A DNA stretch of 64,000 nt. Source: Podarcis gaigeae (Eukaryota). The stretch lies in NCBI GenBank assembly GCA_964106915.2, contig OZ066916.1; one strand, given 5' to 3'. Below the pieces are notes generated by a model, which saw only the letters and a list, made by a program, of their open reading frames with translations, made no database searches and was not told the DNA's origin. The translations under genes and the position numbers were made by a program. This document shows positions 1,352 through 55,800 of this stretch, piece after piece (position 1 is the stretch's first letter; every line of letters begins with the position of its first letter).

Positions 1352-1471
1352 CTTATGCTGGGCAAGCTGCATCTTAATTTTGTCTGGATCATTTGCAATT
1401 TCAAGCTCTGCATCCAGAGTCTTTTCTGAATCATCCAGCCATTCAGTAAGTTTGTTCCAGGCTTCATGGAA
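1352..1471 (-). CDS. DST: DST exon, 120 nt (FHEAWNKL...AQHK)
   Basis: tccacag| ... AAG|gtgagt, phase 0/0. Confidence 0.95.
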
Positions 1472-22400: not shown

Positions 22401-25400
22401 GCAGAGATGTCCTTATCAGCGCCTTCTGAACGGGCAATCATCTCCTCCCCACGCTGCTTGAGGGTTTCATAGACTGGCTGAAGTTTTTCAAGGTCGACAG
22501 ACACATTCTTATTTTCACCGATCTGTTCTTTAATCTTCTCAACCTCAGCTGAGATGGAAGGCGGTTGCCTCAAACGTTCAACAATGCGTTCTAGGCTCTC
22601 AGTGGTCGAATCTATCTTGTCATGGAACTATGCAGACAAATGGGGTGGAGGGAGAGAAGACTGGGTGAGTGACAGATTATTAGCAACATTTAAAAGGAAT
22701 TGGGTCAAACCAGAAAAACCCCAGTTATAGCTGAATGAACATGCTTAAAGCATCCTTAACTATTTTTGTGACCTTTTTTTTTGTCTTTCTCAACAGATTT
22801 ATGATCTTAGTTTAAGCAAAATTTATGCTTCCCAATCAAGGTGTCCAAATCATATCTGCTTGTTAGTGAACTAGGCAACTTCACAGTACAGACCAATTGT
22901 TATCTGTCTCATCATCACCATGTATTAATACTATGTATTAACAGTTTCCTGAACATAGTTTTATAACACAGAGGGAATAACACATTTTTTCTTTTACCTA
23001 TCCTTAGCCACAATGTGTTGTGTCATTTAAAAAATGTCAGCAATTCACATCATTAATAAGTTTTATCTAATAAATATCTTACTGCATTGGTTAATTACTG
23101 TTAACATTATGTGGCAGTGATTAATAGACATGGTATGAACATAAGCATCTAGCTCCTAGGTAGGTAGGGTCAGAAAACTATAATGCAGTAGCATTACATT
23201 GGAAAGTTGCAAGTTGCTTCATGCCAAGTCTGACCAACAGTCAGTCACTGTCCCACCACCGCTATTTTTGACAAAGACACCAGGAGAAACCCTGGGCTGT
23301 CTTGACACCAATTAGCCTCTTTGATTGTGTGCATGCATGAACAAATCACTATTATGTAGGATACTGGCTTTATTATTCAGGGAAAAACAATTTTGTAGTT
23401 CCCAAATAGGATAAGAATATTTCCATTTTTTAATTATGCCTTTCCTTCAAGGAACTTGATGGCACATGGGGAAGATTTGATTCACCAAAATACAATGCCC
23501 TTAATTCTTTAACAGATAGGAAGAGCAAATTTATGTGCAATGATGGGAGTATTCACATATTTGGTGACGTAGTGTCTTGGCAAGTCCACTATGTACCTAA
23601 AGTCTATTGATTTAAGATAACAACATCCTGCAGATGGAATCTAATTGTTACCTGGGTAGACTGAGATATGGCTTCGTCCAATGTCTGAGCTCGCTTTTTG
23701 ACATCTTCTTTAATTTGACTATAAAGGGCATCAGCTGCTACATACTTCTCTTGGATTGAAAAACCTTCTCGTGGGCTCAGTTCCAGAAGCTGAGGTCCGG
23801 TTTTATTCATCTTATCTATATGAGGCTTGTGTTCAGCAATCAACTCTCGCAGTTGCTATAGCAAAGCAAAACACTTATCAGTATCTAACCCTTACATCGC
23901 CACATTCCAGCTGTCTGTGCGTCCAACACGTTCAGCTGGCAAGGTGGTCTAAATAAACAATCCCATCTGCATGCTAAGACAAAGTATAACTCATACTGGA
24001 TATATCCATTTAGCCTTATTGTTGTGTTTTCAGCTCTAAGCATATAATGTTTCCTTTATACTAGAAAAACAGCATTTTAGTCAACCAAGATATTTAAAAG
24101 TACAGAATCTGGGAAGCAAAACAATATAATTAGTCAAAAGTATTCAGCCAGTTGTCCGGCACTCTAAATGATTTATTAAGTAATGGCATTCCAGAAGATG
24201 CCAAATTGTTTAAATATGATTATAAATAGCTCGCTAGGGCTCTAGAGCTGTAACAAAAGCAAGCAAATCAAACCTCCAAGGTTACATCAAGGAATCATAT
24301 TAAGATCATCCAATATTTTTGAGACTCACAGAAAATGCTGTGCTTTAAAATGGAAGCAACACATTGTTGCACTTTGTTCAGCTCCTTTTAAAGCATAACT
24401 TAACGGAACAAACTGTTATAGTTTTAAAGTTCACTTTTAGAAAGTGCTTCTGGGTACTTTTTCTTTTGTTTGTCTCTAGTTTCTGTTGAATTCAGTGTGC
24501 CTTCACTACTACTCAATGAGGCTTTAGCTCATTTTTCTACCCAGAACACTCTCTATAATTAATCTCCAACTTTGCTAATATGAAGACAGCCATGTTTCTC
24601 GTTATGGCTGCACTCTGCCTAGTCAGGAACCTCTGTCTTTTGTTAAGGCTGACTGAGTAACTGCTGGACTTTCTGTTTCCAAAATTGGGGGTCAGCCATC
24701 ACTTCTTTCCCCAAAATCCTGGGTACAGACTGAGTCTGCAGCACCTAGTCCAATCCAGCCTGCAATCTCTCTTAAAACTGAATCTAAATGCAGAAGTAGT
24801 GGCCACAACCATTTTTGTTGTTTGTTGCTGTCCCCCACCCCCTTTTCCCTATCCTCTGCTTTGCATAACATCCTGACTAAGAGTTCTGGAGAACTCAAAA
24901 GATTGTGATACTTTGGCTGGTCCAAATTAAGGTGTTACCCAACTTTGGATTTTTGATTTTTTTTCCCTTAGGGAACACCACAGCTTGCTTTGCATTCCAA
25001 CTATTTTGGATACTGTTGAACATTTTTATTCCTTAAAAAAAATGTAAATAATTTGTTCAGAGTTAGGCCACTAATTCACTAATCCACTTTTCACAATGAT
25101 CGCTCTGCCTTGAGAATAATCTCAAACTTGTGGTTATATTAAAATAGAAAATTTTTATTTCATAAGAAAATGGATTTTGGGTTGTTGTTTTTAACAGAGA
25201 ATAAAAAATATGTAAAATCTGATAAGTATTGGTTGGTTTGGTAAATGCGACATGCTAAAGAGAGGGCTGCACTTGACCTTTGGAATTAACAGCATTTTGT
25301 AAGGCGACTTCAAACTTACCCGGTGCTCTTCTTGTTGTTGCTTTAGGGTTTCATATTCAAGAGCTGGTGCTGGAAGCTGTGATATTACTGTTTTTGTTTC

Positions 25401-28400
25401 CGTTAGCCATGGCCAAATCTCTTCATAAGTCTCCCAGAACTGACTGGCTAGAGACTGAGCTCTTTCTAGCTGCAGGTTCCTCTTAGAGTTCATTTGACAG
25501 AGTATATTATACTTCTGCAAGAGGTCTTCCAGCTTCTTCTATTAAAGAAATTACCAACAAACACCAGCATTTATATTTTGGTTGGAGACATTTACAAGAT
25601 TACCATTGTGGCAGGTGACTATTCTTGATATAACGGGGTGGGCAATCTTTTAGTCCTTTAGGAGGCAAGTAGGCAGGTGCTTAGGGGAGGCATATCCACC
25701 AAGGAGTTCTGGATTCAGCATTCTGGGTCCAATTCTATGGAACTCCCCCCGGTTGATATCAGGCAGGCCCTCTTTCCTGTTGAATTTCGAGTGTTTACTG
25801 AAGGCCTTTTAAAATTTCAACAGGCATTTCAAGTAAGTTTTAAGAACATAAGATGAACCTGCTGGATCAGGCCAATGGTTCATCTAGTCCCCCATCCTGT
25901 TCTCACAATGACCTGTGGAAAACCAGCATGCAAGATTCAAGCACAAGAGCACTTTCCCCTCCTCTGGTTTCCAGCAACTGGTATTCAGAAGCATCGCTGC
26001 CTACAACTGTGCAGAGAATAGCCATTATGGCTAAAAGCCATTGATAGCTTTATCCTCTATGAATTTGTCTAATCCTCTTTTAAAGCCATACAAGTTAGAG
26101 GCCTTCACTGCCTCCTGCAAGTTCCATAGTTTAACCACGCGCTGCATGATGCAGCCAACTTGAGGCAGCTTAAGCTTTCAAGGCACATTTCAGCCCCCCT
26201 TACATAATCTTAGTGGGCTCCAGCGACATGGCTTGGGAATCCTTTACGCATGCAGATTTTCAAAGTTATTGGTAAGGAAGTGCAAATCATGCTCCATTAC
26301 CTTCATGGTTTGTTTGTCCTCTTCCGTGCATGTCTTCATAATCTCATCCCCAGATGCAACAAGCTCTTCTATTGTATCCTTGTGTTTCAAAATCTCCATG
26401 GTAAATGCCTAATTACATAATACAATACTCTGGTATTAGGAATATGAGGACATAGAGCAAAAGCCTGCACTATAATGGTTTGAAAATTAAATCATGGCAG
26501 AAAAAGTAATGGCCATTAATTATTGCATTACAGATGGAATCACATTTGTTCACCTTTTGAACTTGTAGCTGAGCAATGGTCTGGTCACGTTCAAGCCTAA
26601 TGTCACCCAGAGACATCAGTTTATTTTCTGTTTCCTCGACCCAGGCTAATTCAGTGTCGGCTGCTTGATCAAACTAAAGAAAACACAAAAAAATAAAATA
26701 GCAATTCATAAAAAAAAACCTCCAACTTGATGGGTAGAGGGTTTAAATGGAAAAGATATTTCAGAAAAGACATTTGATAAGATTGAGAGGTGGGGATCAT
26801 AGCTCAGTGGTAAGACTGCACTGGTTACATTTACACAGCCTCAAGTTTATGAGAACCTGTTTATATTTTAGATATCAGAACCAGTAAAACCCTAAATTGC
26901 AAAGCTGCCTCTAGGCCAGTTCTAAAATAGTGGGTATTTTAAGCTGCAATTCTAAGGGAGTTGCACATAGCTAAGAAAGTGTGTCGCAACACCTTCGGGA
27001 GGGGATAGAGGATGAAGCGATCAAGGTGTCAATGGCAACAAGATAGTGCCTATTAACTTCCCTGCTAGACCATAAGCTTTCCACAGTTTGTGCATTTAGA
27101 CCTGGAAGAGGAGAAGTGGTCTCTTCACTTCAGAGATATGATGGAGGATGAGAGAAATCTGGGTATTTTTAAAGGGACAGGAAAGGCAAGGCAGAACAGT
27201 GCAACATGATTCAGTGGCATTTGTCAAACACATACAGAGTCAGAAAGGTAAAGATTGTAAGCAGTGGGCCAAATATCTTTGAAAGGCAAGTGTGATGTCT
27301 CTGTGCAAAGCTCAAAAGTATACGAAATAAACACAGTGATCATTCACACATTATATGCAACGATATAATTTTCCTCCCTATGCTGTGATAATTTAAGGTA
27401 ATAGGAGAAAAAAACTTGAAATTGAAACAAGTAGCTTCAAGCTTGCTGATGAATTTTTGTTCAGCAGCTGCTTGCTAAAGTTTCCCTTTGAAGTTATTTT
27501 GTTGAAGAATAATGACTTTCAGGTCAGCAGCACAGCATCCTGGAATCAGTGCTAGTGGTTAAGAGTGTGAGGCTAGGTGTCTCGTTGCTGTGATTGAATA
27601 TAATGCAGCTTCTTATAATACCCACACAGTTTATTCTTATTTTAATAAATTCTAGGGCTCTCTGTGACACTGAGGAGTATATCAAAATCAGCTTATTTCA
27701 GAAGTGTTTTACAAAGAGGAAGCAGGAAATGTCAGAGCCACATTATACTTTATACTTCAACCGGAATTTTCTGTCAAAATTCTCACAAACATCAAAGGTA
27801 ATATTAATACTTGCTTTTCTTTAAACATCTTTTGCTCTTGTCCATCTTTAAGATTATTTCCCTGCCTCAATAGAGAGATTATTTTTTAGTTAGGCTAGAT
27901 CAATGGCATTAAAATCAATGGGCAGCAAAATAGGAATTGCTTCTTGGTAGAAGTTGACAGTCCAGTTGTGCAAACGCAAGTCATGAGTATCTATAGCATA
28001 CACATATTCCCCCCCCCCCGAAAATCTTATCCTTTCAGAGACCACTAGTGGATTTCTTTCAAATGTCATTTTCCAAACATGCATGGGAAAAGAGAGCAAG
28101 TTTGTGCCCACTGAGCTTCCCCCCACCATGACAATACTACTGGCGGTACCCTGACTTCCACACTCTGGGGGAAGGTTCTAAAGAAGGGAGAGCCCGCTGT
28201 ATGAACCTAGATTAGCACCCTGATCACAAAGGGTTCTGACAGAGGCAGAGCCCTACACACAAAGCAGACTCCTCATTTCAGACCTTCCCCTTCAATATGT
28301 AGATGGCGCAGGGGAAGGCAAGCCAGGGTCTGTTATCCCACTAGACACTGCTGTCATATGCAAATGTTCCATCCTCAACTTTGTTTCTTCCCCTGGGCTC

Positions 28401-31400
28401 ACCAGACCAGTTCTCAACTGAACTTGAGAGCTTTGGAGAACTTTGAGAGCCTTCCCCATCCTGGTTCTTTCCAAATGCTTTGAAATACAGTTTCCATCAC
28501 TGGCCATACTGACTGGGGCTGCTGCGATCTGGAGTCCAAATTATATTGAGGGCACCAAGTTAGAGAAGTCTACTGTAGCACAATACCTGAATGGTCTAGT
28601 TTAAACAGACAAATAAATATACACAACAAGTTTCAATGTGAATCATGTTCCTAAAAGAAAGAGGTAGAGAAACTGATATGGTGGATAACTTTTATTGGAC
28701 CCACTCATGATGGTGGGAGCATATGTGACCTTTAGAGGCCATCAAAATTCTTCATTATGTCTGACGCTTTCAACATATGCTGGTTGAACAAGAAATAACC
28801 CTATTAAGCTGCTTGAGAAAGTTGATAATTTACATGTTTGTGTTGACAGAGTCACTTCCAACTGAAGGTGAAATTTAATGGATAAGCTGTCATATCTTAT
28901 TCTTTAATTATGAATCATGACTGAAAAGCAAGTTACGTGGGCTGAGGTTTCTCCATGTTTTTCATGAGTAATTCTTTATCACACTGTTTAATCTATTTGA
29001 AACAAGCCACAAACATTTGCTGTCATCTCACATTTATAATCAGAGAAGGTACTTTTGGCCTGAACATTCTGTTTTGAAAGAGAGGCATATAAACTGAGTC
29101 ATACTAAATTAAAGGGCCAACAAATTAGAAGCTCTAAAAAAGAAAAATAAAACCTTCGAACAAAACACTGATGTGTATATTAAGCCCATTTTAATGTTGC
29201 CCACAACTGCAAATAATGTTTATATTTCCTGCAAAACTGCATCCACTGGCTACTGTACACATCTTTACTTCAACCATTCATTTACACAAGCTGATATATG
29301 ACCTACATAGCAGCATAAATAATAAGTTACAGGGTTTGAGTTTACAATTCTTTCTGTACTGAAATTCCCACTGAGATCACTGCATGATGCCACTCGTAAT
29401 GCCTCTCAGTATGAGACTGATCTGTAATTTCTGTGTCAACTAGAAGACAGATGGCTACAACAATGACTGGATTTGCTTTGGTCTAGGACTCATGTCTGAC
29501 AGCTATGACCAAGCTCTTTTCAAGTTTGGCCCCAGTTCTTGCAAAGACGTAGCATGCATGTGCCAATAATAGGAACAGCAGCCTTTTCTTTTGGTAGGGA
29601 TTCCCAGATATATACCTGGATGTATTCCTAGAACAGATAAATATACATATTTTTTCCCCCTATCACACATAGACTGAAATGAGAATTAGGGACATTTTTA
29701 CCTGCTGCGATCTGAAAATGGCAGCATCAATTTCTTCCACCTTCTGAGTTATAGTGTCGCTCACTAATCTGTACCGTTCGTTGTCTTCTGTGATCATTTT
29801 GTCTATCCCTTCCCTTGCTCTCCATGGCACCAGTTCAAGCAAAGCACTGCTGACTTCGTTAAGAGTGTCCAGTAAACTTTTATTATCTTTTGCTTCTTTT
29901 TGCAGTGCCTAAAAAGGAATATTTAAGGTAAACAAATTAAAAATAACACATTGGCGCAGAAACAAAATCTGCACAGCTCAAAGGTTCCACCCATGGGGCT
30001 TTTTTGGTTTTATCCTTCTCCCATCTTCAGTTTTTTTTTATTTAGTTTAAAAGTACATAGTTGAAATGCTACAGCTGCAAGCCAAAGCTATAAATATCAC
30101 TCTTTTCAACTTGGCTACCTTTGCTTTTGTTACAATCACGCTTGGGACCCCCTAACCTCTCACACTATCAATATAAATAAATAAACAAAGGACCTACCTA
30201 CATGATGCTGACACAAACCTCTAAACTAATAAAAGGTGATAGTGCAAAAGAACAATACCCCATCTCTCTCTCTCCACCTCCCTCCCCTACTCTGAAATGC
30301 ATTCTTGAAATATGATAATGCTTCTTGCTTAGCTGGTGAAGGGATGTGCATGAGGTGTAAATATATGCAAAAATGTCCCAACTTCTGTGTAGCTTTACAA
30401 AGGGAAGTGTCACACTTGTTACTCCACCCACTGGCATGTGGCCCCCGGAAGGCTGTCCACAAGCAAACACAGCATTTTACGCTCACCTTTTGTCTTTCTT
30501 GCGCTTGACTTAACTCTTCACCTTTGGGGACCTGCGCTTCATACGACTGTAATTCCACCTCAACTTTATCCAGCCAAGTGCAGAGTTTCTCATGAGCTGA
30601 CTGCAGCTGACCAGAAAGCTGTAGAGCCTGTTCTAAAGTCTTGGACACATCAGAACTCAGCTTAGTTATGTCCTTGTACCTTGTTTTAATGCCTTCCAAT
30701 TTATCTTGAATTATGACAACTTCATCACCTGCAATGTGAGAAGGGTATTTAACACACTAATCATCTAAAGCGACAAGGATGTTTTTAGTGTTTAAGTCCA
30801 CAGGTGAAAATAGAACAAATATTTCATCCTGATCAAGCTAGTTTTCCTTCTAAGCATGGAAGCTTCGCTGTGCACATGCAACTTTAGCCCACCCCACCCC
30901 ATCCCTGTCTTATTTTAGATTGGGCTCCACCAAAATAAATCTAGGTCAAGCCTCAGCCAATCAGGATTCTCTAGGTCAGGAATGAGGAAACTGTTGTTGG
31001 ACCACAACTCCCATCTTTGCATGATTATTGGCTGGCTCTGATGGGAGATGGAGTCCAACAGCATCTGGACTCCCTATCCCTGTTCTATGCACTGGGTCAC
31101 GCCAATTAAGTCATCAGTACAAGCTGGGAGCCCTAATGACTTCTGAGTAGGTGACAGGCAGTATGGTAGGCAGAGCTCAGTATTCATGGCTCAGGGTTTT
31201 GCCTGCTCTGAAGTTCAGAATCGGTCTCTCTGAATATGGGAATAACGTGCTAGCATTCCAAGCTAAGGAGCAGATGGATGGCCTTTCCTTCTAACACCGC
31301 ATGGCAACTTTATTTGACTATATCTTTAAAAAAACAACCAACTATGTCTTTTCTCCAATATACATGAAATATTGAGATTTTGTTGTATGTACAGTAATTA

Positions 31401-34400
31401 AATTTAATCCATTAAAATAAGGCAGGTAATGAATCAACTGACAGCGCTAATTACAATTAAGAACATTTTCCTCTTTGAGTGGCTATGTCCATGCAATTTC
31501 CGTTATACAGAGAGTAAAAGTCAGAATTGAAACTGCACTGTTCGTTATACTATATGTTTACCTTTCAGTGAACAATTCAGGTTCTAATTCTGTAATTCAT
31601 CTCCTTCTCTCCTCCCTCCCTTCTTCCCAGCCCCAAACTATGTATATCTTGGAGAGTTCATGGAGTTAGAGACTGGAAAATTTAGAAGATGTTGGTCTAC
31701 AAGCCAGACATGCTGTGTGCAATTGGAATGCAACTTTCCCACAGTACTAGGTCCACTGTGGGGGAAGCAGCCTCTCTCACAGCAATAGGTAGACTAATTA
31801 CTCAGTCCATTTTTAAAAAAAAACTCCTTTTTTTGCATTTACTACAACATTCTTCTATATAGCTCTTTAAGCAGTCTATTTACTCCTTCCTTACATCTAC
31901 TGGCTGAAATCCAAATGGACATGCATCATGATACCACACATTGCAAACTGCTTTAAAATGCTGAAGTGCTACTCAAAAATCATAAAATAAAGAACTATTC
32001 AAACTATAATCAAATTCTTCCAGAACCATGCATATTCAAGTTACAGGTGAGTGATCACACTCTTGTTTGCTCCAAAACGTGTCCAAACTTTTCAAGAGTT
32101 TCAACTGAATACTGTACTATAAAAAAGTCTCAAGCCGCTTTTAGTATTAAGCTCAAAAATTTACGAAGCTTCTTTGTCACCCTCCACTGTACTTCATTTA
32201 CAAATCCCTGAACCCTAAGACTCCCCAAAATTTGGGGGTCTTGTCCCTAGCAGAACAACATTTCGTGATGAGACCTTTAATGCGAATAAGAGAAATAATT
32301 TCCAGAGGCAAAGAAATGATCTATATGCTATTTCTATAAAGGATAAGGCCTTCCCTCTCCCTGACAGAAACAACACATGGAAAGTTAGTTTCCTGTCAGG
32401 CATTCTGGGATTTGTAGTTACTATTTTCAGCAGGAAAATATGCTCTGTCAAGGGCTGGTAGCATTTTTTCACTGTCTCTCCCTTTCCCAAAATGAAGTCT
32501 CTGTTCAATGGGACAACAACTCTTACCTTCGCTGTGGGATCACTAGCCATAGTCCTGAGCTCATTCAAAGAAACACTGGGTCAGTACCTGCAGTATTGCC
32601 CCGGGATTTTGAATACGCTCCACTCCAGAACAGTAGCAGCTAACCACTTGTACTGGCTCATAAGATCACCTTACCCTATGGCCTCTTGGCTGATCAAGGA
32701 AGCAATGGACTAAGAGAGGAGAATGGGAAGGAGCAGAGGCCAAGTCTATTGTTCCCCACAACAATATTAAAGCTGGATCCAGTGTGTGCTCAAAATTCAC
32801 AGAGGGCGAAATCGAGAAGGCTATTTTACCATATATTCCCCAGCAGTAGAGTGAAATTTTCCAACTGTTCAAACATCTGTTAAGAAATTCTCTTCTGAGA
32901 AAATTCCTATCAGCCCTAAATTTTCCCAATAGCTCTGCACAGTAGACCAGTAGAATATTACAGCAGGAAGGCTGAGGCTGAGTTAATGGTTTGCCTAATG
33001 TCACCTAGGAAGTTCATGGCTGTGGTTAAATTTGAACTGAGGACTCCCAGCTCATGCTCTCAATCACTATGCTACACCAACTCTTATTACTGCTTTCTTA
33101 CCTGGGAGTAAGCTCTGATGATCTCAGTCATGCTTACCTCTGAGTGGACAGGTATAGTATTGCACTGTGAAACTTTATTACACACTGCAACCATAATTTT
33201 AAACTTATCCCATTACTTATTAACAAAAAGGTTTTTTTTTAAAATGAGCTTTAAAAAGGTTCCAGTAGGAGTCAGTGAGCACCCAAAAGTTTCTACTTTA
33301 CTTGTCTTCGTTGTCATAAATCATTAATTTCCTCATGGCTTTCTCACCTGTTGTTTGTTTGAGAAGTTCCAAACCATTTTGTATAGCCTGATCAACATTT
33401 TGCTTTCTGAGCAAAATCTCTTCTTGGAGAGCCTAGAAAATTTTAGAATGCTTTTATCATCAGAGAAGTCATCATTTAAAATCTATAAAACTGTAAGTCT
33501 ATAAGCAGCCACTTATTCTCTCAGAGGGAGAATTGGAGCAGGGTGCGGGGAGGATAAAGGCTTAAAAATAAATGAATAGGATACAGAATTAAACGACTAT
33601 AACAATACAAAAAAATGAGAAGTAATATGAAATAGTGCTTAAAATGGTAAAATAAAATCAACAGAAAATAAATGGAAATACCAGCATTTCAGTTTGTTGT
33701 TTCACAAGCAAGTCAGTATTGTAGTCTTGGACTGCCAGTTTGCTCAGTTTCTCATGTACTTCATTCAGCCAATTCATCAATTCAACTTCATCCTCTCCAA
33801 AAATCTGAGCATTGCAATAGGCTTGCTGTAGAAGCTGAGCCCTACTGCCACTTTTCTCTCGAATCTCAATGTATTGGGCTTCTGAAGAATCTAGTTTCTC
33901 CTGTACCATTTCCTTGTCTTCCTTGGAGCTCAATGCCTTTAATGCCTGACCAATATAAATAGCTTGCTCCAAATTTTTGTTGCGAGTGGCGATGTCTTCC
34001 TCAAAGGCCTAAATGAAGTTTTCAAAGTAGTAAGAAAAAGAAAAGAAAAACAAGCAAACAAAAGAAACCATAAAACCAAATATGAAAACAACTCAAGAAC
34101 AACCAAAAGAATATAACTTTGATGGTAAAAGAAGAATATAAACAAAGTAATAAAAAAATGTGTTGGGGGGAATACTCCATTTTTGGTTTACAAATCATAA
34201 AATAATTGCCGCAATGAAAGGCACATTAAGATCTTACTTTATGTTGAGAAATCTGCTGTTGTAGTTTGGAAGCCTGTGTTCCAATGGGTTCTGAATTTGA
34301 AAGCCTCTTTTCAGTGATGGTTAGCCACTCAACCAGTGGTTCTAAAGTTTCATGGAATTGCTGTGCTACAACTGAGATACCTTCCAACTGACGATTCCTA

Positions 34401-37400
34401 CAATATGTGAAAACAAAGCACATTTTGTGGGATGAGGGATGTATGAAATGCTAAAAATTTAAAACCAGCGCTTGGAAAGAACTACTTTGGTTTAATTACG
34501 TTCAATGAATTACTTTGAAAATCTCTGAACTACACCTAAAAGTAGTTCCCATAATTGGAAGATTATGGGAGACATCCACTTTACTACAAGAACGGGTGAT
34601 TATGTGATACTGATTTCCCCATACTATTTCACTGAAATTTCTAAAAATAAAACTTATAATATACTCAGAGATATTTTCTCATTTAGCTTCAAATGTGAAT
34701 CTTACAGTTAACTGGATGAAAATGTTGCTATAGTTTCAAATTAGTTTCTAATGCTGTATCACGGAGTACACCCTACAGTACCCCTAAGTGAATGCAAACA
34801 TTTCAGGTACCTTGTTTCTGCTTTATCAAGCAGTGCATCCCATCTGCTATCCAGGAGGCTCAGCTGTTTCAAGATCTTCTCTTTATCAGCGGGCTCTGCT
34901 GACTCTGCAATTTTCTCCCCTTCACGCTTGATTAGTTCAACAGTGGGTCTGCGGTCATCCAGCAATCTCTGGAGAAGCTGGAGACAAAATAATCAAAAAT
35001 CAAATTGCCAGGAAATGACTGTTCACTACAAGGCTGTAAAAAGATTAAGAGGCAGATTCTTCAAGGTCTTGTTTACTGGCAAAAAAAGGCAGGCTTAAGG
35101 GAACAATTTTCTGAGATGGCAGGAAATTGTGAGGGTGCCAGCAGTCTTACAATGCAAGTGCCATAAATTGCATAAATAAGTAATTTCATTATGAGAGCGA
35201 GCAAACTGTGCCAATCTTAGCATCGGTTGTAAAGGTCTAGCATCTTTCATTCAGATTTCTTTTCAATGCTATCCTGGAAGCCTCTGGAAGGGCTACAGAT
35301 ATATATGCCTTATATGAGGTATGATGTTGACATGTGCAGGAAGAGGGGGGAATCACAGTGGGACATTTTATAACACATGACAGTGCTGGGAACTTTTGGG
35401 GAAGCTTTTCCATTTTGGAAAGAGAAAAGATGGGAAATTTTCCACTTCACATAAGAACCCTCCCCATCTTTTCAATACGCTGGTGATGTTTGCAACTATC
35501 CACTGCAATCCAGAGAAATATCTGTTTGTTTATATAGTGCTCACCTTTCGAAACACTTGTGGCCGCATTCAATAAGATGAACACAATTCAGGGCTTAATG
35601 ATGCGCCTAAGACCAAATTATTTTAACAGAGAATCAAACATGTTATAACATTCTCTGGATTCTGTCCCAAATTTTCAGTACAAACATATGATCATTTTGG
35701 AGATTATTATGTTGCGCGCAGCTGCAACTTTGGATACTCACTTTGGCCAGACAACCTGAGGACTTGATTCACTAAGCTTCATGCAGTGCTCTTCCCTGAG
35801 GGTTGCCTTCTATGTTTCAGCCAAAAATCCCCCCTTCTCTCTCCTACTGCCTTTTGTTAAGACTGCTCAGAGAGCACAACTTCTCTCTGATGCTGTGCAT
35901 GCTGCGACCTGCTCTTCCCTTGCTCATACGTTTATTTTGAACAGGAAAGTAATTATGGATCTGGTTACAGAGTTTGATGTGCTGTATTTACGCCACAACT
36001 GCCAATTCAATATTTAATATGAACCTTCTCTTCCCCCCCTTTTTAAGTGAGGGTCTAACAATCCATCAGCAACTGTGTTACAAACAATTGTTGAACAATC
36101 TGAAGCAGGGGTGTTTGACATTATTAACTGAAGATACAGGCACACCAAGATGTTACCCTAAATCAAAACAGATTCTACAAAACTCTAGAGACAGAAGTCA
36201 GGAAGTAAGGGGTGGAGCAGAAGCTGACACCAGGCACAGATTTCATCCCTTGCTAACCCATATGTATAGGCAACTCATGTAAGTGCACACTGAATGGCAT
36301 ATATGGGAAAAAGAGATTAGCTGAGAAGGGGTGGGGTGGAGGGTTGTCAAAATGATGAAGGAGGATTGAAGCCCTGACAAAATTTTGAACTTTATTTCAA
36401 CTTAAGGGAGTAGCTCTACAATGTTCTTCCCCCTGCCCCTTTTCACAATATCAGTGATGTCTTTTCAAACATCAGATTGCTTTTGATCCTTGAAATAATT
36501 GTTTTTGATGTGCATCCAGTGAAATGTACACGTGCATGAAATGATGCCAAGAACCAGCACAGATATTCCAGAGTTTTCCTTGCAATATATACAGAAAACT
36601 GGTCCAATGAAATGATTGTTTGTGCTATACATGGCCTCTGTCCCTCCCAGTCTGCACCAGCTCCCCGCATTTCCCAAAGAAGTGAAGAAAACCACATTTC
36701 CCCGGACAAAGGATGCAATCAATGCCTGGATGGGAGGCTGCCTGGGAACGCCATTGAGTTCCATGGTGAAAGAAGAGCGGGATATAAATTTACATACCAA
36801 CTATTTATTATATTTCTTGGTCACTTTTCTCATTGAATGAACCAAAGCAATTGAGGGCTCATCCCACACTTTCGCTTGCCTAGCCACTTTTCCCCAGGAA
36901 AACCCGCTGTCTACCACTGAATCTGAGCCATACAAGTAAAAGGCAGGACTAACAGATCCTGTCCCACTACTATGCTACAGTCTGGATGCCTCTGTTAAAA
37001 TGAGTGGAGAATTCCAAAATGAAAGTATCAAAGGGCAAATCTTTAAAGAGAATTTCAGAGATTGGGTTGAGAAAATTTGCCCTTCCCCTGAAAAAAGCCA
37101 AACACATCCCCCACAGAAGCATCCATGACAACCATCCTAAGTGATGGGATGACAGAGACTATGGAAAGGTATTTTTTTCAGGTTCTTTTGCAACTGCACC
37201 TCTTATAGCACACGTCTAATACACACTCAGCCACACTGTTATCCAGGCCGTCACATGTTATTACTGTTATTAATTACCCACTAATCATCCTAAGGCCCCG
37301 GGTGGGTTACAACATTAACACACAGCTTTAAAAACAGTTTAAAATACCCCACTGAGCAGGTGACAGAGAAAATATAATTAATCTAAAGATAGATAAATAA

Positions 37401-38628
37401 CTTCCACTCACTTTCTGTTCCTGTATTTGGGCCTTCACAACTTTGAACTCAGCAGATGGAGGCTTTTGATTAGCCACAAGGTCTTCTGTGTCAATAAGCC
37501 AGCTAAGGATAGATTCGACAGCATCTTGAAACCTCCCACAGTGGAGCAGTGCCTCTTGCAACTGGGCTGCTCTTTGAGCAACCTGACAAACAAAACAAAA
37601 CAAAACAAAACAAAACAAAACAAAACAAAACAAAACAAAACAAAACAAAACATTGTAAATATTATCCTCTTCCCACAATACCTCTTTCCATCTTTCAAGT
37701 CAATCAAACAACCCCTAGGGAAAATAAGAACAATTTAAGGCTAGCAACTCCTAAACTATGAAGCTCTTCACTGACTTGAGTGACATTCTGTGCACTTCGG
37801 CAAATAATTAAAATTGTCTTAATACAGGTATGAACAATACAACATTTTGTAGCAGTAGGTCATAGGTGAACAAAGTGTGAGGTAGACCTGCCTAGGGATA
37901 ATCCCCAGGGAAGCCTAAGTACTTCATGTGCCTTTTGAATGCATGCATCTTTATTTGGACTAATATAATATAATATAATATAATTTTTTATTTATACCCC
38001 GCCCATCTGGCTGGGTTTCCCCAGCCACTCTGGGCAGCTTCCAACGAAAGATTAAAAATACATTAAAACATCAGTTATTAAAAACTTCCCTAAACAGGGC
38101 TGAAGACAGTTGAGTAGGCATTTTGCTTCAATCAGCATGACACAGAAAGCACCATGAATTATGTTTTGCAATCCTCTATTTCCTTTAGGCTTTTGACTTT
38201 CTACAGGTTTCTTTCCATGGACATTAAAATGACAGGGTATCCATGTGACAAAGGGTAGTCTGCTTCTGTAGGAGCTCTACATAAGCACCAGAGCACACAT
38301 GGAGTTCTGGACTGGGGATTTTGTGCATTTTATTAGGCAGTCTACTACAATAATGTATAGTACTACTTTGTAGTGAAAATCAGAAATAAGAGCAAAACAA
38401 AAACAGCAAACTAAAAAGGTAAACAACAGTGCAAATACAACTAACAAACCTTTTTGTTGAGAGTTTTCCATCTTGTGTTAACATCCTCAAGATCACGCTC
38501 AAGGTTATCAGTACTAGCATTTTTAGCAGCACTCTGAATAAGGCCTTGACCCAACCAATTTACCTCCTGTTGCTTAACCTGCAGTGGTTCAATCTTTTCC
38601 TTCTCGAATACCTTCAGATCAAAAGGAA

Positions 38629-40813: not shown

Positions 40814-43800
40814 ATAAGGCTGTTTTTGCTGCACTCAACAGCACTATCTATTTGCAGGACACTGTGGGATTTGTTAAGGGGGGGCATTATAAAGCAGAGT
40901 TCTGAGGAAGCAAGTAGTTGAAAACAGCAAACAGGTCTTACCTTTCCCACAAAAAAAATATATAATATGGGCAAGTTCTCTTTACTTTAGAGAAATAAAC
41001 AAGGGCTGGGATGCAAAAGCTAATTTACACATACCCAAGTGTTAGCTCAGTAGTATCTTTGGCAATCAAACAGGCAGGCACATGTACACACCCCAGTTCC
41101 ATAAACTACTTTTGAAATTCCCCTCTCTTTCAAAAGAAGCTTCCTGTATTTGAGGTTGCTGTGTGAGAAACACAAGTCCTGCTCCAGTTTAGGCCCATGG
41201 AACTAGTAACACAGTCCTTCAATCCAACTCTCTTCTATTTCAGATGTTCATATATTTTTAAGACAATTCCATAACAATCCAAACCGAATTGTTCCCCTTG
41301 ATTTGTTGTTTAGATATACATACCCACTCACAAAAGTAGGACTTGAGGCTAGAGTTTGCCAGAACAGCTTAGCAACAAGTCCTAAAATAACTCAAGACAC
41401 AACCAGATCAGAGTGACCAAAAACAAAAAGAACAAAATTAAATTAAAGACTTCACAAGCTCCCCATGTTTATTACAAAGCTGTTTTCTACTTCCTTACTT
41501 CATTCACCGCTCAGTAAATGTTACAAGATCTCTTGTAAAAAATCCCCTACAACTTTAGGACTACTTTTTGGCATGAAGATGCAAGGAAATAATTTCAGTA
41601 CGTGCAACAAGCCTTTAATCTGTGTACTTTGGAAACCGCAGCAATCTGAGCATCATTGTGTATACCTTTATGATGAACAGTGCAATCCTATACGTGCCAG
41701 CTCAGAAGAAGCATGCCCATTGGGTTTAATGGGCCTTACTCCCATGAAAGTGTGTACAGTATATGTCTGCAGCTGAAATCTGGTTAAATCTGAATAGGGA
41801 AGGCCTATCTGCCCTTGAATGGCATTGCCTGCTTGAAACATAATTTGAGGGGAGGGGAGGAGGGGTGCTGAACATCAATGCCTAGTGGACGCATTCCAAA
41901 TAAAGGGTAACAGGCACCATCTGGACAATAAATAGCCATGCAACCAAACAGCTGGAAGCAATCAACCCTGTCACAAACTGCCCTTAATCAATTTACTGAA
42001 GTGACCATCTCGCCAATTTCTGCCTTCTAATAACTTGTTGGGCAAATGATTCTAAAGGAACTATTTGGGTAGATTAGCAAAATCTAAATATAAGCATTCA
42101 TGATGCAATTACAGAAGAAAAATAAAAATAAAATAAAAATAAAATAAAAAATAACCCACCCTGCAGCATGAAAAGAATGCATTTAAGTTTGGAATTACCT
42201 TATAAGACAACATGCCATTGCACACTGTATCCAAGGTTTGTTCTATTTGCATGCCTGTAGTCCAAAAGCTGAATTCAGCGCTGATTGGATTTGCTTTTTG
42301 ACAGCATGTGGTATTATTAGCCTCTAAAGCCTGACAGGACAATTCTATTGCACTTGTATGGGCCATATTACTTTCCTCAGTTTCATGCAAAATCACATAT
42401 TTTACTAAGTCCTTATTACTAGCATGTAAAGCTGCATCATCATCATAAATATCTATATCCTGAGTTGAAATATCCAGGAGGTCCTTTTCAATCATCCTGT
42501 CTTGGGTGTCTAATGGCTCATTAACTTCAGCGCTGTTCCTCACTTCCTCTTCGTCTAAAGTGAAATCATATTCCCTCTCACCATCCTGGAGCCATTGGGG
42601 ATGTGCTAAGAGGTCTTCTTTCAAATATGTCAGTGGAATGCAATGTCCATCTCCTTCCCCTTGGTTGCCCTCATAGTTCCAGAAAGGTTCTTGCTCTGTA
42701 TGTGAAGCATTCTGCAATTTTACTCGACAGTGTCCACTGGTAGGGGCACTTCTGGAGGTAAGCAATGAAATTTGATGTTCACTACTAGAAATGGTAGGAG
42801 AAAATGATCCAAATTTACCCACAAACTGATTATCGTCTATGGAAGATATGCTCCTAAATTGAGTTTGTTCCCCTTCTAGCACATCTTGTTTTTCTTCTCT
42901 TTCTGCTGGAGGACTGCACAGACCAGAGTCGTCTTCTTCGGAAGTTAGAGAACTAGTCCCACATTTGACCTGGCCTGTTGCTGCTAAGTCGGACACATCA
43001 ACAGTCCCAGCAAGTGAGCACTCACTTTTATTTGCATAGTCTGCAAAATTTGGTGGGACAAGCATCCTCCAGGATCTCCTATGTTCTTTCTTTTCTGTGT
43101 GATACTTTGCTTTGGGCAAGCCAGCTGTTCGAATGATGTCACTGTTCAGCTTAAGGGCATCAAAGATCATTTTTTCATCTAGCTTATTGGCTTCCCGTCC
43201 TCTGAGTTCAAAGACACTAGAAGAGGAGAGGGCACCATTGGAGCACAATGTACTAAGGTCCAGTGTTCTATGACTATACGGCAAAGTCCGATCTGAGAAA
43301 TGCCTGGAGGAGAGGCTGCCTTTAGAACCTGAGTCAATCTGTTCATTCAGCCGCACTGTGTCATAGATTGACCTCTGGGGAACATAACAGTCTTCAATAT
43401 TTATATCCTCTTCTTCTTCATCACCTTTTCCTACACAAGGAGGATTCTGGCGTAAACAGTCTGGCCTGCTCAGCGGCTTCCCCATTTCTGCAGGAATTAA
43501 CAGGTCTAGCACTGCTGCTAGGCTATCTTATTGGAGACACGCAACACACATAAAGTAAAAATTAAAATAAAGTAATAGAAAAGCAGTTTTTAAAAAGTAC
43601 AGTAAACTTGCCCTCAGCAGAAAGATGCTTACATACTAAAACACAGGAAATAATTTATGAGGCGGTTAAGGTCGTAATCAGTGCATCTGTGTAAGTTTAC
43701 CTGGCTGTGATTTAAAACATTTCTCCCCCTGCCCCTAAAATATAAAGTGCTTGAGCTTAAGAGGGGAAACAACCCCCCCCCACCTTTTAATATTTTAAAA

Positions 43801-46800
43801 TACTAACTCAATGCACAAAGACACCAACAAAATGTACAAACCCCCAAACCCCAGGAAAATCTTTAAGTGGCTCAAAAGACTCAGAACTTCCCACATAGCA
43901 TTCCATTTCAATTTTTAGGTCAAAATGTGTGTCTTAAATCTCCAGATTAAGTCTTCAAAATGAATCAGCATTATAGCAGGCAGCACGCTATATTCAGGAG
44001 GTGACAGATTAACTGTAATCCATTTAAATGGCTTGCAGAATTCCATCTCCTTTATAAATAAGCCATGTTGTGGACGCTTTTGAAGAAAAAGAAACCAGAA
44101 GAGCTGTGGACTGTGGAGACCAAGGCACAGAGAAAGGCTTCAGGAAAAACAAAGGTATATCCAGAGTTGTAATAATAATAATAATAATAATAAAAGAAGA
44201 AGCTTTCTCCCCCTTTTTTGGCAGCAGCTGTAAATAACCTCGATTCAAAAGGCAGTTTATTCCTTGCTTCCTTAAAGCTTCTCTGTGGCGCGTTCAGAAG
44301 TTCCATGGGAAACACAACAGTTTTCTGAGGAGCCAGACCAATGAAATAATAATAATACAAAAAAGCAACGGAACAGAATTAGTAGAAAAAGAAACTTTCC
44401 CCCCAGTTTCACTCGCAGAACACATTCCTTGAAAGTTGTTGTCCTGTTTTAAGGCAACACAGCAGTAAACTAGAGCGTTTCTTCCTCCACTCCGGCACAA
44501 AGGCACAACAGATTCACATTCTGTTTAAATTCAGCAGGACTTTTTTTTTTTTTTTTTTTGCATAAACGGTGGCTACAAGAGCGTGGTCACTGTTTTCATC
44601 TCTGTCTTGAAGCGCAGCTGTAGCGAAGAAGGCATTAAACAGAGCTCACAACAATAAACGCTCACATGTCCTGCCCAGCGCAGCTGATAAGCTTTCCGGC
44701 TCTCCCTGGTTTCTTATGGTCTGACAGGCATCCCTCCCAATAGTGAGCTTAAAAGAAACGCCCTTTGCTATTCTTTAGGCAACATCTGCTCCTATCGCAT
44801 TCGTTCCCTGAGTATTATTCCAACCGAGCATTAGGAGGTGCCTGACCTCTTAGCTCTTCCCCCTTACGCTTCCTGCCCCACATGACTTTACTTAGCCATC
44901 TTTCACTTTTACTGTTTGTCTTGTCTCTGAACGAGGCTGAGCCTTTTCAGGGGGAGGTGCACAAAGGAGCAAGTTCCTGTCTGCAGCACTCCTGCATATC
45001 GGAGTCTGTGCTCTGTAATTCTGGAGGAAAAGAGGGTGGGTGGGTGGTGGCTCACAAGCAGAATGGAAAAACCGGTGCTAATTAGTTCAAAATGTCAAAA
45101 ATTTACTACATATTGCTTAACCGGGTAACCTGACACCATACAAATATGGACCAGACTACCCAGGACCCTTCTAAAACACTGACAAACTGCACTTATTCTG
45201 CTTCATAACAAAAATAATAATCCAGTACTTACAAATTATGCAGATTCACAGGAATCTGAATATAGTGGATGGTCACTTTTAATGGTATGTAGCATTATAA
45301 ACTAAACTAACCAGCTGCATAAGAAGAATTCAATCAAATTGAATTACTTTCCACCATCACCATAAATCAATTTTAATTAACAGCCAGATCTTACTTCTGA
45401 GCAAGCCCCATGAAAAATCTCCATAGGATTGCATCCTTTGCTCTATATTTGTAACACATGTACATTATATTCTATAATTAGGGATTTAGCCGGCAAATTG
45501 GTCTCTCTGAATGACTACAGAATGCATTCTTCATTCACAATCCAGTTAATCCAATGAAAAGGGATTTGCTTGATATTTTTTTACACTTCCTGGCTCTCAG
45601 ACAACTGCAAATCCCAACATGCAAAGAAGTGCTGAAACTTTTCAAAAATCTCACCCAGTACAGTACTCCTAAAAACCACACTATATTGAGGTAATAGCAT
45701 GAGTAGTTTTACTTATTTGTTTCTGGATCTATTTAGATGGAAGGCACATTATATTTTTAATAAAATAAATAGCTAAAGCACTAAAAAGAGTAAAAATAAT
45801 ACAGAGCAAGAGAGCAGCTCATTTCTTAAAGCTGGTGTATTGTTAATTTATTTGCCATATGTATACCAGCATATCTACATATAAAAATGCCCACGTTGTT
45901 AACAACCATCATGTCCCACTAAAAAGACAATGTTTCATACCACAAGATGCAGTCACAACAAACCATATACAAAAACTACAGCAGAAAAGGATCCACTCCC
46001 TTGGGAAGGCAGCACTATAAGAAGGGATAGTCGAAGATAGGAATGAAGTTTCTGACAGTCCACTGTCATACATATTCACTACTCCAAACTAAATCTTATT
46101 GTGTGCCACAGAGGATATTCCCAAATAAAGTGCAGCAAGTGTTTTCAAAGCAGTGGCCCTGGATGGAGGGCAGGAGACACTATCTGGGCTCTGCTTCAAG
46201 CAGCAAAATGGGTCAGTACTGGAATGACAATGAACCTTAAGACCCTCCTTTGAAGGAAGTCTGTCACTCCCAACCCAGAATGTATTTATAGTCAGCTGAG
46301 CATGGATTTGTTGAACAGGCACTGTACATGTCCAAGGCAGCACCTGAACACGCAGCTACTCCTTCCATTTAAAAGAATGGGGAAGACCATCTGTAAAGGA
46401 GCTCCATGTGAGCATTAGAATATACAGAGGGCTCTGGACAAAGGATAAGGTCTGTATGCAGGTAGCCACCCCAAATGTATGTTGAGTTTTTTCTTTAATG
46501 TAGTGATAATAAATTATTATTCTTTTTTAATTTTATATTTAAGCTGCAAAACAGATGCAAATATTGAAGTTGATGCAGCAACAAAATATAATTTTACTTT
46601 TGAAGGCGCCTGTGAAGAAACCACATACTTCAGGGAAGACTTAACACATTGCACTGATTCAATCAACAAGGTAAGAGGCCACCATCTACGACACCAACCT
46701 AAACCAATTTAAATATTAGTTCAAGCTCATCAACTGGAATATTCATCCGGGCCCAGAGCTCCTATGAAGCGCAATTAGAAGGAACCTCTTGACATATATC

Positions 46801-52800: not shown

Positions 52801-55800
52801 CCTGTGCAATGCCTCTGGGGCGTGGGATGCTGGAGGCTGTGTTCATTGTGCTTTGTCTTGCTCTCTGGGAAAGATTATGGCTATATTCTGAATGGGTGTG
52901 GAGGTGGGGAAAGTTCAGGGCTGCTCCTGCCCTCATTCTATCCCATCATTCAGCAATCTGTTCATGAGAAGACTCTCCTGCCACAGAAGCACTGAGCCTC
53001 CTCAGCCGGGCAGTATAGTAACAATGGGAAGCAAAGGAAATATAAAGATTCTTAAAGAATCCCAACTTTTAAAGTAAATTGAACTGTGTTAGTTAAGCTC
53101 TAGGGCAGTGTTTCCCAAACTTGGGTCTCTAGCTGTTGCTGGACTAAAATTCCCATCATCTCTAGCTAGCAGGATTGGTGGTCAGGGATGAGAGGATTTG
53201 TAGTTTAACAATAGCTGGAGATCCAAGTTTGGGAAAGTTTGTTCTGAATAACAAAAGCTGCAGTTGACAACCCTTCTGTGTGCTTGAGTGGAACCACAAT
53301 TTAGTGTATTTGCACCCAGCCAGTTTTAAAATTACCATTAATCATGTCAGCTGTGTGAGAGGGGAGGAGAGGAAAACCCAAGAAGCTCAGCTTTGCTGGA
53401 GATCTTCAAAGCAAAATGCAGGACATTCTGTTTTAAAACAACTTAAGAATGCTTCTCTAATAACTTTTGACCAAAGAGAAGACCATCTTCTCAGTTTCTA
53501 AATTGCTTCATGAGAACACTGAGCTGAGAACACTTCATACAACTTCAGACCACAATCCTCAAATTACTTGAAAATTCCAAGGACCCCCAAACCAAAGGAG
53601 CATGTGATATCACTTCCTGTTGGACAACTTAAGTCTTATTCATTACAAGGCAAATAAAAATGTTATGATGTAACTATTTTGCAGCAATTATGTTTATCCA
53701 TTGAAATTAGAGGAAGCATTTGAATTCATAAACAAACAAACAAAACTTGCTTATTAATAAAGCTTTAGATCTCAAGATGGGAATGCATTGGGTGGGATGT
53801 ATGTTATGTTAGATCTCACTCGTCTTAAAATAGGCAAAAAGCACCCTCTGTTGGGAAACATGAAAAATGACTTTGAACGCAATTCTTAAGAAACTGACTG
53901 GCTTACAACACATGATCTATAAGCTGAAAAAGGAGGGCCAACCCAATCACTTTTCCTTGGGGGTCTAGACTACTAAGGAGCTTGCGTCACAATATTCTTA
54001 CAGTTAGTTTTCATTTTACAATACAGAATTCTAAAAACTCAGAAAGGTCCTTCTTACCTTAAATACGTTCAGCTGCTGATTTATCGTCTCAATTTCCATT
54101 CCAACAGAACCCTGGGACTCTTCATGCTCTTCAACTTCCCCAAGCAGTTTAGAAAACCCCTTTAGTTTACTGTAGAACTCTTCAACGCGGCTAATAGTCC
54201 CTTCAATCTGTTCATCTCTGGCTTTTGCTCTGTCTAGCAACTTGTTGCACTGCTTATTTAAAGCCTCCAAGTCCCTTTTTATACCTGCAAGATCTGGAGA
54301 AGCTTCAGCTTCATTTGCTAGCATCATTTTGCAGGTATTATTTGCATTTTCATTACTGGTTATGAGTTCCTCCAACTTTTTCAGGAAAGTTTTTATATCC
54401 TTTCGCTGTGACTGCAGTGTGACAAGATCCCTACCCACAGAATCCATGCTGTCCAATTCATCATCGAACTCTGCAAACTGAGAAAACATCTCTCGGATGC
54501 TGTTTTGGAAATGGCCAATTCCCTGGAGTTTAGTCTCCAGGAATGAACATTTATCTTCAACCTGCTGACTGATGGTGCTGAATTCTTCTTCTAATGTTTC
54601 TGCCTGCAACAAGAGGTCAGAGACACCTGATGAATCTGAAGCATCTGCCACCAGTTCTTGGGCCAGCTTTTTTGTAAGGTCCACTTGAGCCTTCAAGGCC
54701 TGGAGTGTTTTCTGCTGAGCCTGCATAATCGTCAAGTGTTTGTTACTGTAAGTCTGGGGTTTGAGAGAATCGTGTGTTTGCAGCTGTTCTCTGGCATTCT
54801 TCAGCTGCTCTTCAACGTCCTTTGATGACTCTTGAAACTCTTTCAGTCTCTGAGACATCTTTTCCAGACCATCTCTCTTAGCATGCAGTTGTTCTGTGAC
54901 TATATCCATGTTCTGGATCAGCAGTGTCTTCTCCTCTTCAATAATGTCTTTGTCTGTCTGACAGGCACTGAGTAATGTCTCAGCTGCATTACTTAATAGC
55001 TCCACCAACCCTTGGTGTTTGTCTAGGTCCTTCTGCCAGCTCTTCACCTGAGCGATGGAATTCTCTAGCCGAACAGGATCTATGCTCATTTCTATTTGAG
55101 AGGTATTGCTTTGGCATTTCGCTATCCAGGGTTGTAGGTTTTCTACATGCTCTCTGTATCTAAGGGCTTTTTCCAAACAATCATTTAATTTATCTTGCCT
55201 TTCTTTAACTTGCTTGTTCATTTCATCCCAGCTACCTCTGAGCAAGTTCAGCTGGGCCTGCAGCTCAGCCTTCTCTGCTCCCTGAGTCTTTTGGAGTAAA
55301 CTTTCGCCTTCTGTGATGATTTTTTCATAAGAACCAGTCTGGTCAGACAAGACAGCCTTGAACTCTTTCTGATCATCAATTAATGTCCACAGAGACTCCA
55401 GCTTGGTAGAGATGGGACAAGGCTGATTCTGTTCTTCCTTCTTTTTGTCCAACCAGGCCTGAAAGTCCTTAGACATTTGCTGGAACTGATGAGAACTAAC
55501 GTAAGTTGACTGAAGTTGCTCAATGTGATTGCCTGCAGAAGACAAATAAACAAACAAACAAACAGAAGTTCCTAAATTCCGTGTCTTTGAGTGGCTTCTA
55601 ACTAGGATTTTGGTTGATGTTATTTCAATCAAGGAGAAACATTATGTTATAGGAAAATGCACCCTATTGCAATTTGAGATGTTTTATTAAACATTATTCT
55701 TCATTGGAGCTTGTTAGCTGATGTGTTTATTGAAGACCACCAGCTTGGAAAATAATAGTATTGCAGCCTAAATTATAACCCCTTGATAATAATAATCATC

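Follow-up and report, generated by a model that had tools for sequence, protein, structure and literature searches.

Genomic organization of the nested exon

The window, a stretch of 64,000 nucleotides from Podarcis gaigeae (GenBank assembly GCA_964106915.2, contig OZ066916.1), carries part of a spectraplakin gene on its minus strand, and its closest protein matches come from lizards. The exons match a Dystonin-named record at 72–98% per exon over the rod and the C-terminus, with one match, spanning an intron, at 58%; against a MACF1-named record the range is 45–95%. The closer match to Dystonin, together with an end made of EF-hand, GAR and KPSKIP, identifies the host gene as DST. An additional coding exon is nested in a rod-domain intron of 15.4 kb, between the exon ending at 54058 and the exon starting at 38611, and the exons around it encode spectrin repeats. 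The features of the locus, in the order of transcription, are as follows.

54050..54066, minus strand: donor of the upstream rod exon (...NVFK followed by GTAAGA; exon end 54058, phase 0)
43486..44530, minus strand: putative 5' leader (about 1 kb; 13 upstream ATGs), crossed without splicing by two probable-RNA contigs
43530-43528, minus strand: in-frame stop TAA, 14 codons 5' of the nested-exon ATG
42199..43485, minus strand: the 429 codons of the nested exon, an alternative first exon of DST with no Pfam family
43485-43435, minus strand: start motif, codons 1-17, predicted N-myristoylation (Gly2) and S-acylation (Cys10, Cys17) signal
43482-43480, minus strand: Gly2
43470-43468, minus strand: Ser6
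43458-43456, minus strand: Cys10
43437-43435, minus strand: Cys17
43387..43389, minus strand: Cys33, within the invariant block EDCY(V/I)PQRSIYDT, missing from a divergent teleost copy
42913-42930, minus strand: DSGLCS, residues 186-191, fitting DSGxxS
42193..42198, minus strand: splice donor GTAATT after ...LSYK, phase 0; homologue models join here to the same spectrin exon
38600..38625, minus strand: acceptor of the next spectrin-repeat exon (exon starts at 38611 with VFEKEK..., phase 0)
1352..37582, minus strand: downstream DST spectrin-repeat exons

The rod, EF-hands, GAR and SxIP of DST are thus encoded downstream of the nested exon on the same strand, the last three by exons past the window start (G000:C3, about 33,016,000-33,033,000; tail KPSKIP). 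The nested exon itself lies 3' of rod exons, and homologue models that start at it have neither the CH actin-binding nor the plakin domain. High-copy interspersed repeats occupy the host intron at 49,800-50,160, 50,770-51,100, 48,820-48,920 and 53,100-53,200, and these stretches draw thousands of partly fitting reads and contigs.

A sequence-only reading of this DNA had described an MGKPLSR start with Gly2, Ser6, Cys10 and Cys17, and exactly these residues were found within codons 1-17. Gly2 does follow the initiating position, since the Met at 43485 is the first in frame (there is no ATG between it and the upstream stop) and its context, GCAGAA-ATG-G with G at -3 and +4, is strong. As a pattern, MGxxxS is common, being present at 11 of the 2,613 ATG triplets of the window, five of which stay open for 20 codons with a Cys. 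Judged from the homologues, the placement of the motif is nevertheless not chance, for it stands at the head of an exon, and residues 1-11 of that exon are the same in 240/240 listed homologues. Cys33, which that reading did not contain, is a third invariant Cys.

The leader encoded by the nested exon is conserved to about residue 200 and variable beyond. A Pfam scan of the leader returned no family and an ESM Atlas search gave no usable match. AlphaFold2 modelling of residues 1-200 with 53 sequences likewise produced no domain (pLDDT 55, pTM 0.18) and only two short helices, 40-51 and 104-111, with no predicted secondary structure in residues 1-29. It follows from this model that the N-terminus would be accessible. 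A folded or metal-binding domain based on Cys was considered and is not supported, as the prediction places the three Cys residues in no fold. The motif DSGLCS fits DSGxxS, the beta-TrCP phosphodegron pattern; DSGxxS was found in 118/120 DST-type matches (best 120 of 193) and in 0/117 MACF1-type matches (first 400 aa), which suggests regulated turnover of the DST form. The nested exon is unlikely to serve as a cassette inside the long form, because the candidate acceptor shifts the frame after the phase-0 upstream exon. Spectrin-like sequence was found in none of the 40 N-terminal extensions among the listed matches.

Conservation of the leader in DST and MACF1

Conservation was assessed in 240 matches (the best 120 of 193 and the best 120 of 216), of which 123 are DST-type, 116 MACF1-type and one unassigned. 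Residues 1-11, Cys10 and Cys33 are identical in all 240, and Cys17 in 238, being shifted by one residue in the other two. The first 11 residues are unchanged from sharks to humans, and one gene model places the origin of the exon before hagfishes branched off. When 1.84 billion representatives were searched, 51 matches were returned; those with names come from vertebrates, and three weak matches appear to be unrelated. The start at the nested-exon Met is also the usual one, called in 200 of the 240 listed matches. The other 40 call an upstream in-frame Met, and 16 of them, mammal-like sequences, share one 38-residue extension. This 38-codon extension, present in many mammal-like records, is hydrophobic; if used, it would mask Gly2 and make the form non-myristoylatable.

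Conservation of G2, S6, C10 and C17 had been proposed as a check on lipidation. All four are conserved, although this is weak evidence alone, since residues 27-58 and also Pro4, Pro8 and Asp9 are about as invariant in the listed matches and the conservation of G2, S6 and C10 is therefore not specific; invariance of residues 27-58 is more than a lipid signal calls for. The changes that do occur in the leader appear more telling than its invariance. Position 7 changes from Arg to Lys only, in three records, one of them hagfish, and position 16 takes ten different residues while Cys17 stays fixed. In addition, eight divergent records, the named ones from teleosts, keep the 10-residue N-terminal stretch, lose Cys33 and gain a Cys16-Cys17 pair. 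In two of these teleost copies that were scanned (the group includes si:ch73-305o9.3 in salmonids) no spectrin repeats were detected, and such copies may be stand-alone lipidated derivatives.

A diverged counterpart at the start of MACF1CTL

MACF1CTL has been described as a gene of spectrin repeats, EF-hand and GAS2 located behind PLEC in non-placental vertebrates, for which gene fission was proposed (PMC8782857, in the text available). The main text of that paper contains none of the terms 'myrist', 'first exon', 'promoter' or 'KIAA'. In the present genome MACF1CTL lies behind plectin at about 304-340 kb of C16, and the first of its spectrin exons to match corresponds by homology to exon two past the nested-exon acceptor. 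About 1.9 kb upstream of that spectrin exon lies an exon which starts MGNAGGRPSCLGEK:

L015:4249-4887 (G000:C16:339,887; gene to about C16:303,000), minus strand: first coding exon of MACF1CTL, starting MGNAGGRPSCL

This exon also carries a conserved TEVTEVTETVVTEIVEVTEYP stretch. In most vertebrates MACF1CTL starts with MGN-x-x-S-R-P-S-C-L, a canonical myristoylation motif, the commonest versions being MGNLISRPSCL and MGNSVSRPSCL, and several gene models continue from the motif exon into the spectrin exon. The start motif is present in 110/120 MACF1CTL matches (best 120 of 121); of the exceptions, one lungfish record has a variant shifted by one residue and nine have no such start. Among the 110 motif-bearing matches, Asn3, Arg7, Pro8 and Cys10 are found in all and Ser6 in 103.

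Searching with the leader profile failed to recover the reading frame of the MACF1CTL leader at a significant level (best E 6.4); it was located by position and then compared profile to profile. The N-terminal profiles of DST/MACF1 and MACF1CTL aligned over 34 columns with a probability of 91.9% and an E-value of 7e-7, and none of 100 column shuffles with Met-Gly held fixed reached the profile score (30.2, against a shuffled maximum of 21.4). The three paralogues share G2, a hydrophobic residue 5, S6, a basic residue 7, P8, C10 and L11, a common core that includes known NMT determinants. Such likeness among paralogues is stronger evidence than the invariance among the 240 listed matches. The leaders differ in that MACF1CTL has Asn3, basic residues after Cys10 and no Cys17, whereas DST has Lys3 and Cys17.

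Predicted lipidation of the N-terminus

The PROSITE pattern PS00008 allows no Lys after Gly. Lys3, present in 240/240 listed matches, indeed departs from it, as the sequence-only reading had noticed, and MACF1CTL conforms with Asn3. A precedent for Lys3 had been sought in NCS proteins, and this stood in part: Lys3 is compatible with Gly-myristoylation, but NCS proteins have Lys7 and no Pro4. The known substrates of NMT starting with GK (the HPCA/NCS1 family, ARF6, GLIPR2 and TMEM106A/B) resemble the leader in Gly2-Lys3 and Ser6, and Leu5 is common to the leader, ARF6 and TMEM106B. Most of these substrates have Lys7 and none of those compared has Pro4, whereas the leader has Arg7 and Pro4. According to the available text of one study, peptides starting with GK are Gly-myristoylated, Lys3 is less favourable and S6-K7 'even more crucial', and TMEM106A/B act without Lys7 through a hydrophobic residue 5, giving a GKxxSx rule (bioRxiv 2021.06.22.449375). 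With invariant Leu5 and Ser6 and with Arg7, the leader fits this rule, which asks for Lys7 or a hydrophobic residue 5. TMEM106B is reported, in the part of the source at hand, to be acylated on both Gly2 and Lys3 in cells (PMC12268641). This protein (K3, L5, S6, no K7) is a closer precedent for the leader than NCS proteins.

GK peptides of the NCS family, ARF6 and GLIPR2 were directly identified in myristoylome tables (PMC10696250), in which all three GK-starting sites have Lys7 and six G-x-P patterns that were tried yielded one Pro4 site (Acox2). The leader peptide or protein was absent from the searched supplements of PMC4200515, PMC10696250, PMC7048800 and PMC6593224, an absence that may reflect its expression in those samples or the content of their search databases. 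The myristoylation of MACF1 in PMC4200515 is unrelated, as it concerns a caspase-generated internal site, G5087.

Taken from its sequence, Gly2 of the leader is quite probably N-myristoylated. S-acylation of the Cys residues is plausible and slightly favoured. Two accessible Cys, Cys10 (240/240 listed matches) and Cys17 (238/240), stand near Gly2 in a region modelled as unstructured.

The putative 5' leader and its expression

The proposed 5' leader would extend about 1 kb upstream of the nested ATG, and CpG is mildly raised at 44001-45000, a putative internal promoter. In two sets of probable-RNA contigs (two studies, related organism), a single contig per set spans 43440 to about 44,450 without splicing. 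The word depth over the leader in these contigs is 10-11, compared with 0-4 in unique intron bins farther up. Two raw RNA runs, of which 12% of the reads were scanned, gave 0 and 2 reads over the leader, and among the listed runs with matching sequence none is on record as RNA. This coverage fits a tissue-restricted transcript having an unspliced leader of about 1 kb; the contigs by their nature cannot show a transcription start, and the reads examined did not span the joint from exon to rod. A 5'-UTR intron, with a donor-like site at 43701/43700 and an acceptor-like site 2 bases before the ATG, was rejected, for both probable-RNA contigs, judged by the stronger joints, cross these sites unspliced. 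Several of the 13 upstream ATGs are in strong context and may restrain translation.

The MACF1 paralogue of the same genome has the same two next exons as the DST nested exon, and a CpG island (CpG o/e 0.76-0.97) lies 0.3-2.3 kb upstream of its ATG. This island in the MACF1 intron (L023, G000:C17:57,824,500-57,826,500), just 5' of the KIAA0754 exon, is likely an internal promoter.

A predicted short and headless form

The phase-0 donor of the nested exon matches the next spectrin exon, from which a protein of about 2,600 aa is predicted. It would contain about 17 spectrin repeats, EF-hands, GAR and SxIP and lack the actin-binding and plakin domains, and the acceptor at 38600..38625 is common to the long form and this predicted short form. 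The length is based on a full-length fish MACF1 model with about 2,170 aa past the junction, of which about 1,860 aa are rod; applied to the lizard, these lengths lead to the estimate of about 2,600 aa and roughly 17 repeats. Donor and phase fit between the nested exon and the rod, a joint that falls outside the read coverage.

Homologous gene models are consistent with this structure. For instance, models from gecko, turtle, catfish, mole-rat, shark, human MACF1 and hagfish begin at the Met and continue into the homologous spectrin exon, and a human cDNA record begins at the MGK Met of the nested exon. Of eight homologue records scanned, three extend as far as EF-hand and GAS2, and CH and plakin domains are absent from all eight. 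Reading frames that run through the donor show Val (GT) there in 68 of 71 junction-matched cases, followed by unrelated tails of 1-166 aa; this count was made on 120 listed near-length matches, 49 of which were not matched by the junction pattern.

It had been proposed that a lipid anchor replaces the actin-binding head and makes a direct tether from membrane to microtubule. The predicted form would lack the head as proposed, and with it the plakin domain and the initial portion of the rod. The microtubule end of the proposed tether is supported, as the exons 3' of the nested exon run to EF-hand, GAR and SxIP.

Relation to described isoforms

The closest annotated relatives are MACF1 isoforms 6 and 7, which database annotation assigns to the KIAA0754 exon; this is a paralogous exon with the first 11 residues identical and with the same rod position and acceptor exon. 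Its leader is longer (about 1,100-1,400 aa, without DSGxxS) than that of DST (429 aa, with DSGxxS). No function or lipidation of MACF1 isoforms 6/7 or of the DST nested exon was found in print. A putative myristoylation/palmitoylation motif has been attributed to the alternative N-terminus of dystonin-a3/b3, or BPAG1a3, in the available portions of PMC3352950, PMC6975176 and bioRxiv 122010. Dystonin-a3 is thus similar to the nested form in being a DST alternative N-terminus with a putative lipid motif. It differs in extent, beginning at the gene's 5' end and retaining CH2, the plakin domain and a complete rod (the class of ~615 kDa), whereas the nested form starts inside the rod and is headless. 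In its composition of spectrin repeats, EF-hand and GAS2 only, and in its homologous MG motif start, MACF1CTL is like the short DST form; unlike the latter, it is a separate gene behind PLEC and was lost in placental mammals.

If the rod has about 28 repeats, the short form would keep all the sites for Rab21, CAMSAP3, ELMO, golgin A4 and EB1, the MACF1 binding of which has been mapped to repeats 18 and 19, the last repeat, the EF-hands and SxIP (PMC8012552, available text). In the accessible parts of the reviews PMC3352950, PMC8012552 and PMC6975176, isoforms are either of the 300 kDa epithelial type or of 600 kDa and above only, no rod-internal start is named and the myristoylation motif is given to dystonin-a3 only. 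PMC5462735 and PMC13518942 contain nothing on the nested exon, which appears to have been mentioned once before, in a review legend. Within the literature searched, outside which most subscription papers fall, no report was found of lipidation of the exon or of its homology to the MACF1CTL start.

Proposed mechanism and alternative explanations

On the whole, it is likely that with this motif an alternative first coding exon of DST begins a short spectraplakin without a head, predicted to be myristoylated at Gly2 and probably S-acylated at Cys10 and/or Cys17, which would tie microtubules to a membrane. An internal promoter would give a transcript in which the nested exon is joined to the exons for the last ~17 spectrin repeats, the EF-hands, GAR and the SxIP tail, coding for about 2,600 aa, as gene models of other species suggest. 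After removal of Met, NMT would acylate Gly2, aided by Leu5, Ser6 and Arg7, and GAR and SxIP would bind microtubules at the membrane without actin. Myristate alone is a weak membrane anchor and a second signal is needed; this, and the acidic run after residue 21, point to acylation of Cys as a second, reversible anchor. MACF1 'isoform 6' begins with the same leader, and a diverged version of it opens the stand-alone gene MACF1CTL.

The N-terminus of a real short isoform could instead be a protein-binding motif, with MGxxxS incidental or acylation inefficient via Lys3-Pro4. This is unlikely, even though it accounts for the near-total invariance of residues 1-58 in the listed matches, Pro4, Pro8 and Asp9 included, for two short predicted helices (40-51 and 104-111) of a kind typical of binding motifs and for the silence of the myristoylome tables searched. 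What it leaves unexplained is that MACF1CTL altered residues 3, 4 and 9, taking Asn3, yet kept G2, hydrophobic 5, S6, R7 and C10, that conservation starts exactly at Met1 and that the divergent copies gain a Cys; moreover, binding and lipidation may coexist. Still less probable is that Gly2 is myristoylated and the Cys residues are not acylated, serving a binding or redox/metal role while myristate and partners hold the protein at the membrane. Cys10 and Cys17 are farther from Gly2 than in classic SH4 signals, which have Cys at positions 3-6, Cys33 is equally invariant in DST and MACF1, and MACF1CTL has no Cys17. Against these points, acylation of eNOS occurs as far out as Cys15/Cys26, all three paralogues retain Cys10, the three Cys lie in no predicted fold, and the divergent copies lose Cys33 but add Cys16.

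The main product might also be the exon alone, through read-through and intronic polyadenylation, which would yield a lipidated, disordered protein of ~450 aa having no microtubule-binding end, like MACF1 'isoform 7'/KIAA0754. Databases do hold single-exon KIAA0754 proteins, one of them named isoform 7, and an earlier text, in its accessible part, leaves open 'its own isoform or ... alternative start site' (bioRxiv 122010). In the same direction, the eight divergent records have no spectrin junction by pattern, two that were scanned gave no Pfam match, and no joint was seen in the reads. The donor position is conserved, however, while the read-through tails are not, and spliced models extend from hagfish to human, so that an exon-alone main product is very improbable. 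The short, lipid-anchored and headless DST form is retained as the preferred reading.

Implications for spectraplakin biology

The predicted short form would anchor microtubules to the membrane without actin, under reversible acylation and possibly under control of a phosphodegron. DST and MACF1 are both disease genes (sensory neuropathy, myopathy, brain malformation), and the phenotype of an allele is explained by which isoforms it removes. With a conserved internal start, there would be one more isoform, spared by 5' alleles and hit by C-terminal ones. The Glu4955 frameshift, described with severe HSAN-VI in the available text of PMC6975176, may be an example of a C-terminal allele that hits the short form.

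For the family as a whole, a tentative proposal, to which slightly less than even confidence is given, is that the ancestral vertebrate spectraplakin had an internal promoter for a lipid-anchored, actin-independent microtubule tether which was kept in all three paralogues, MACF1CTL being the short isoform left when plectin split off at that promoter. On this proposal, isoform catalogues would lack a whole class of ~290-370 kDa linkers between membrane and microtubules, and these linkers would persist with alleles confined to the 5' part of DST or MACF1. With the nested start, the proposed plectin/MACF1CTL gene fission would gain a concrete breakpoint as well as a reason.
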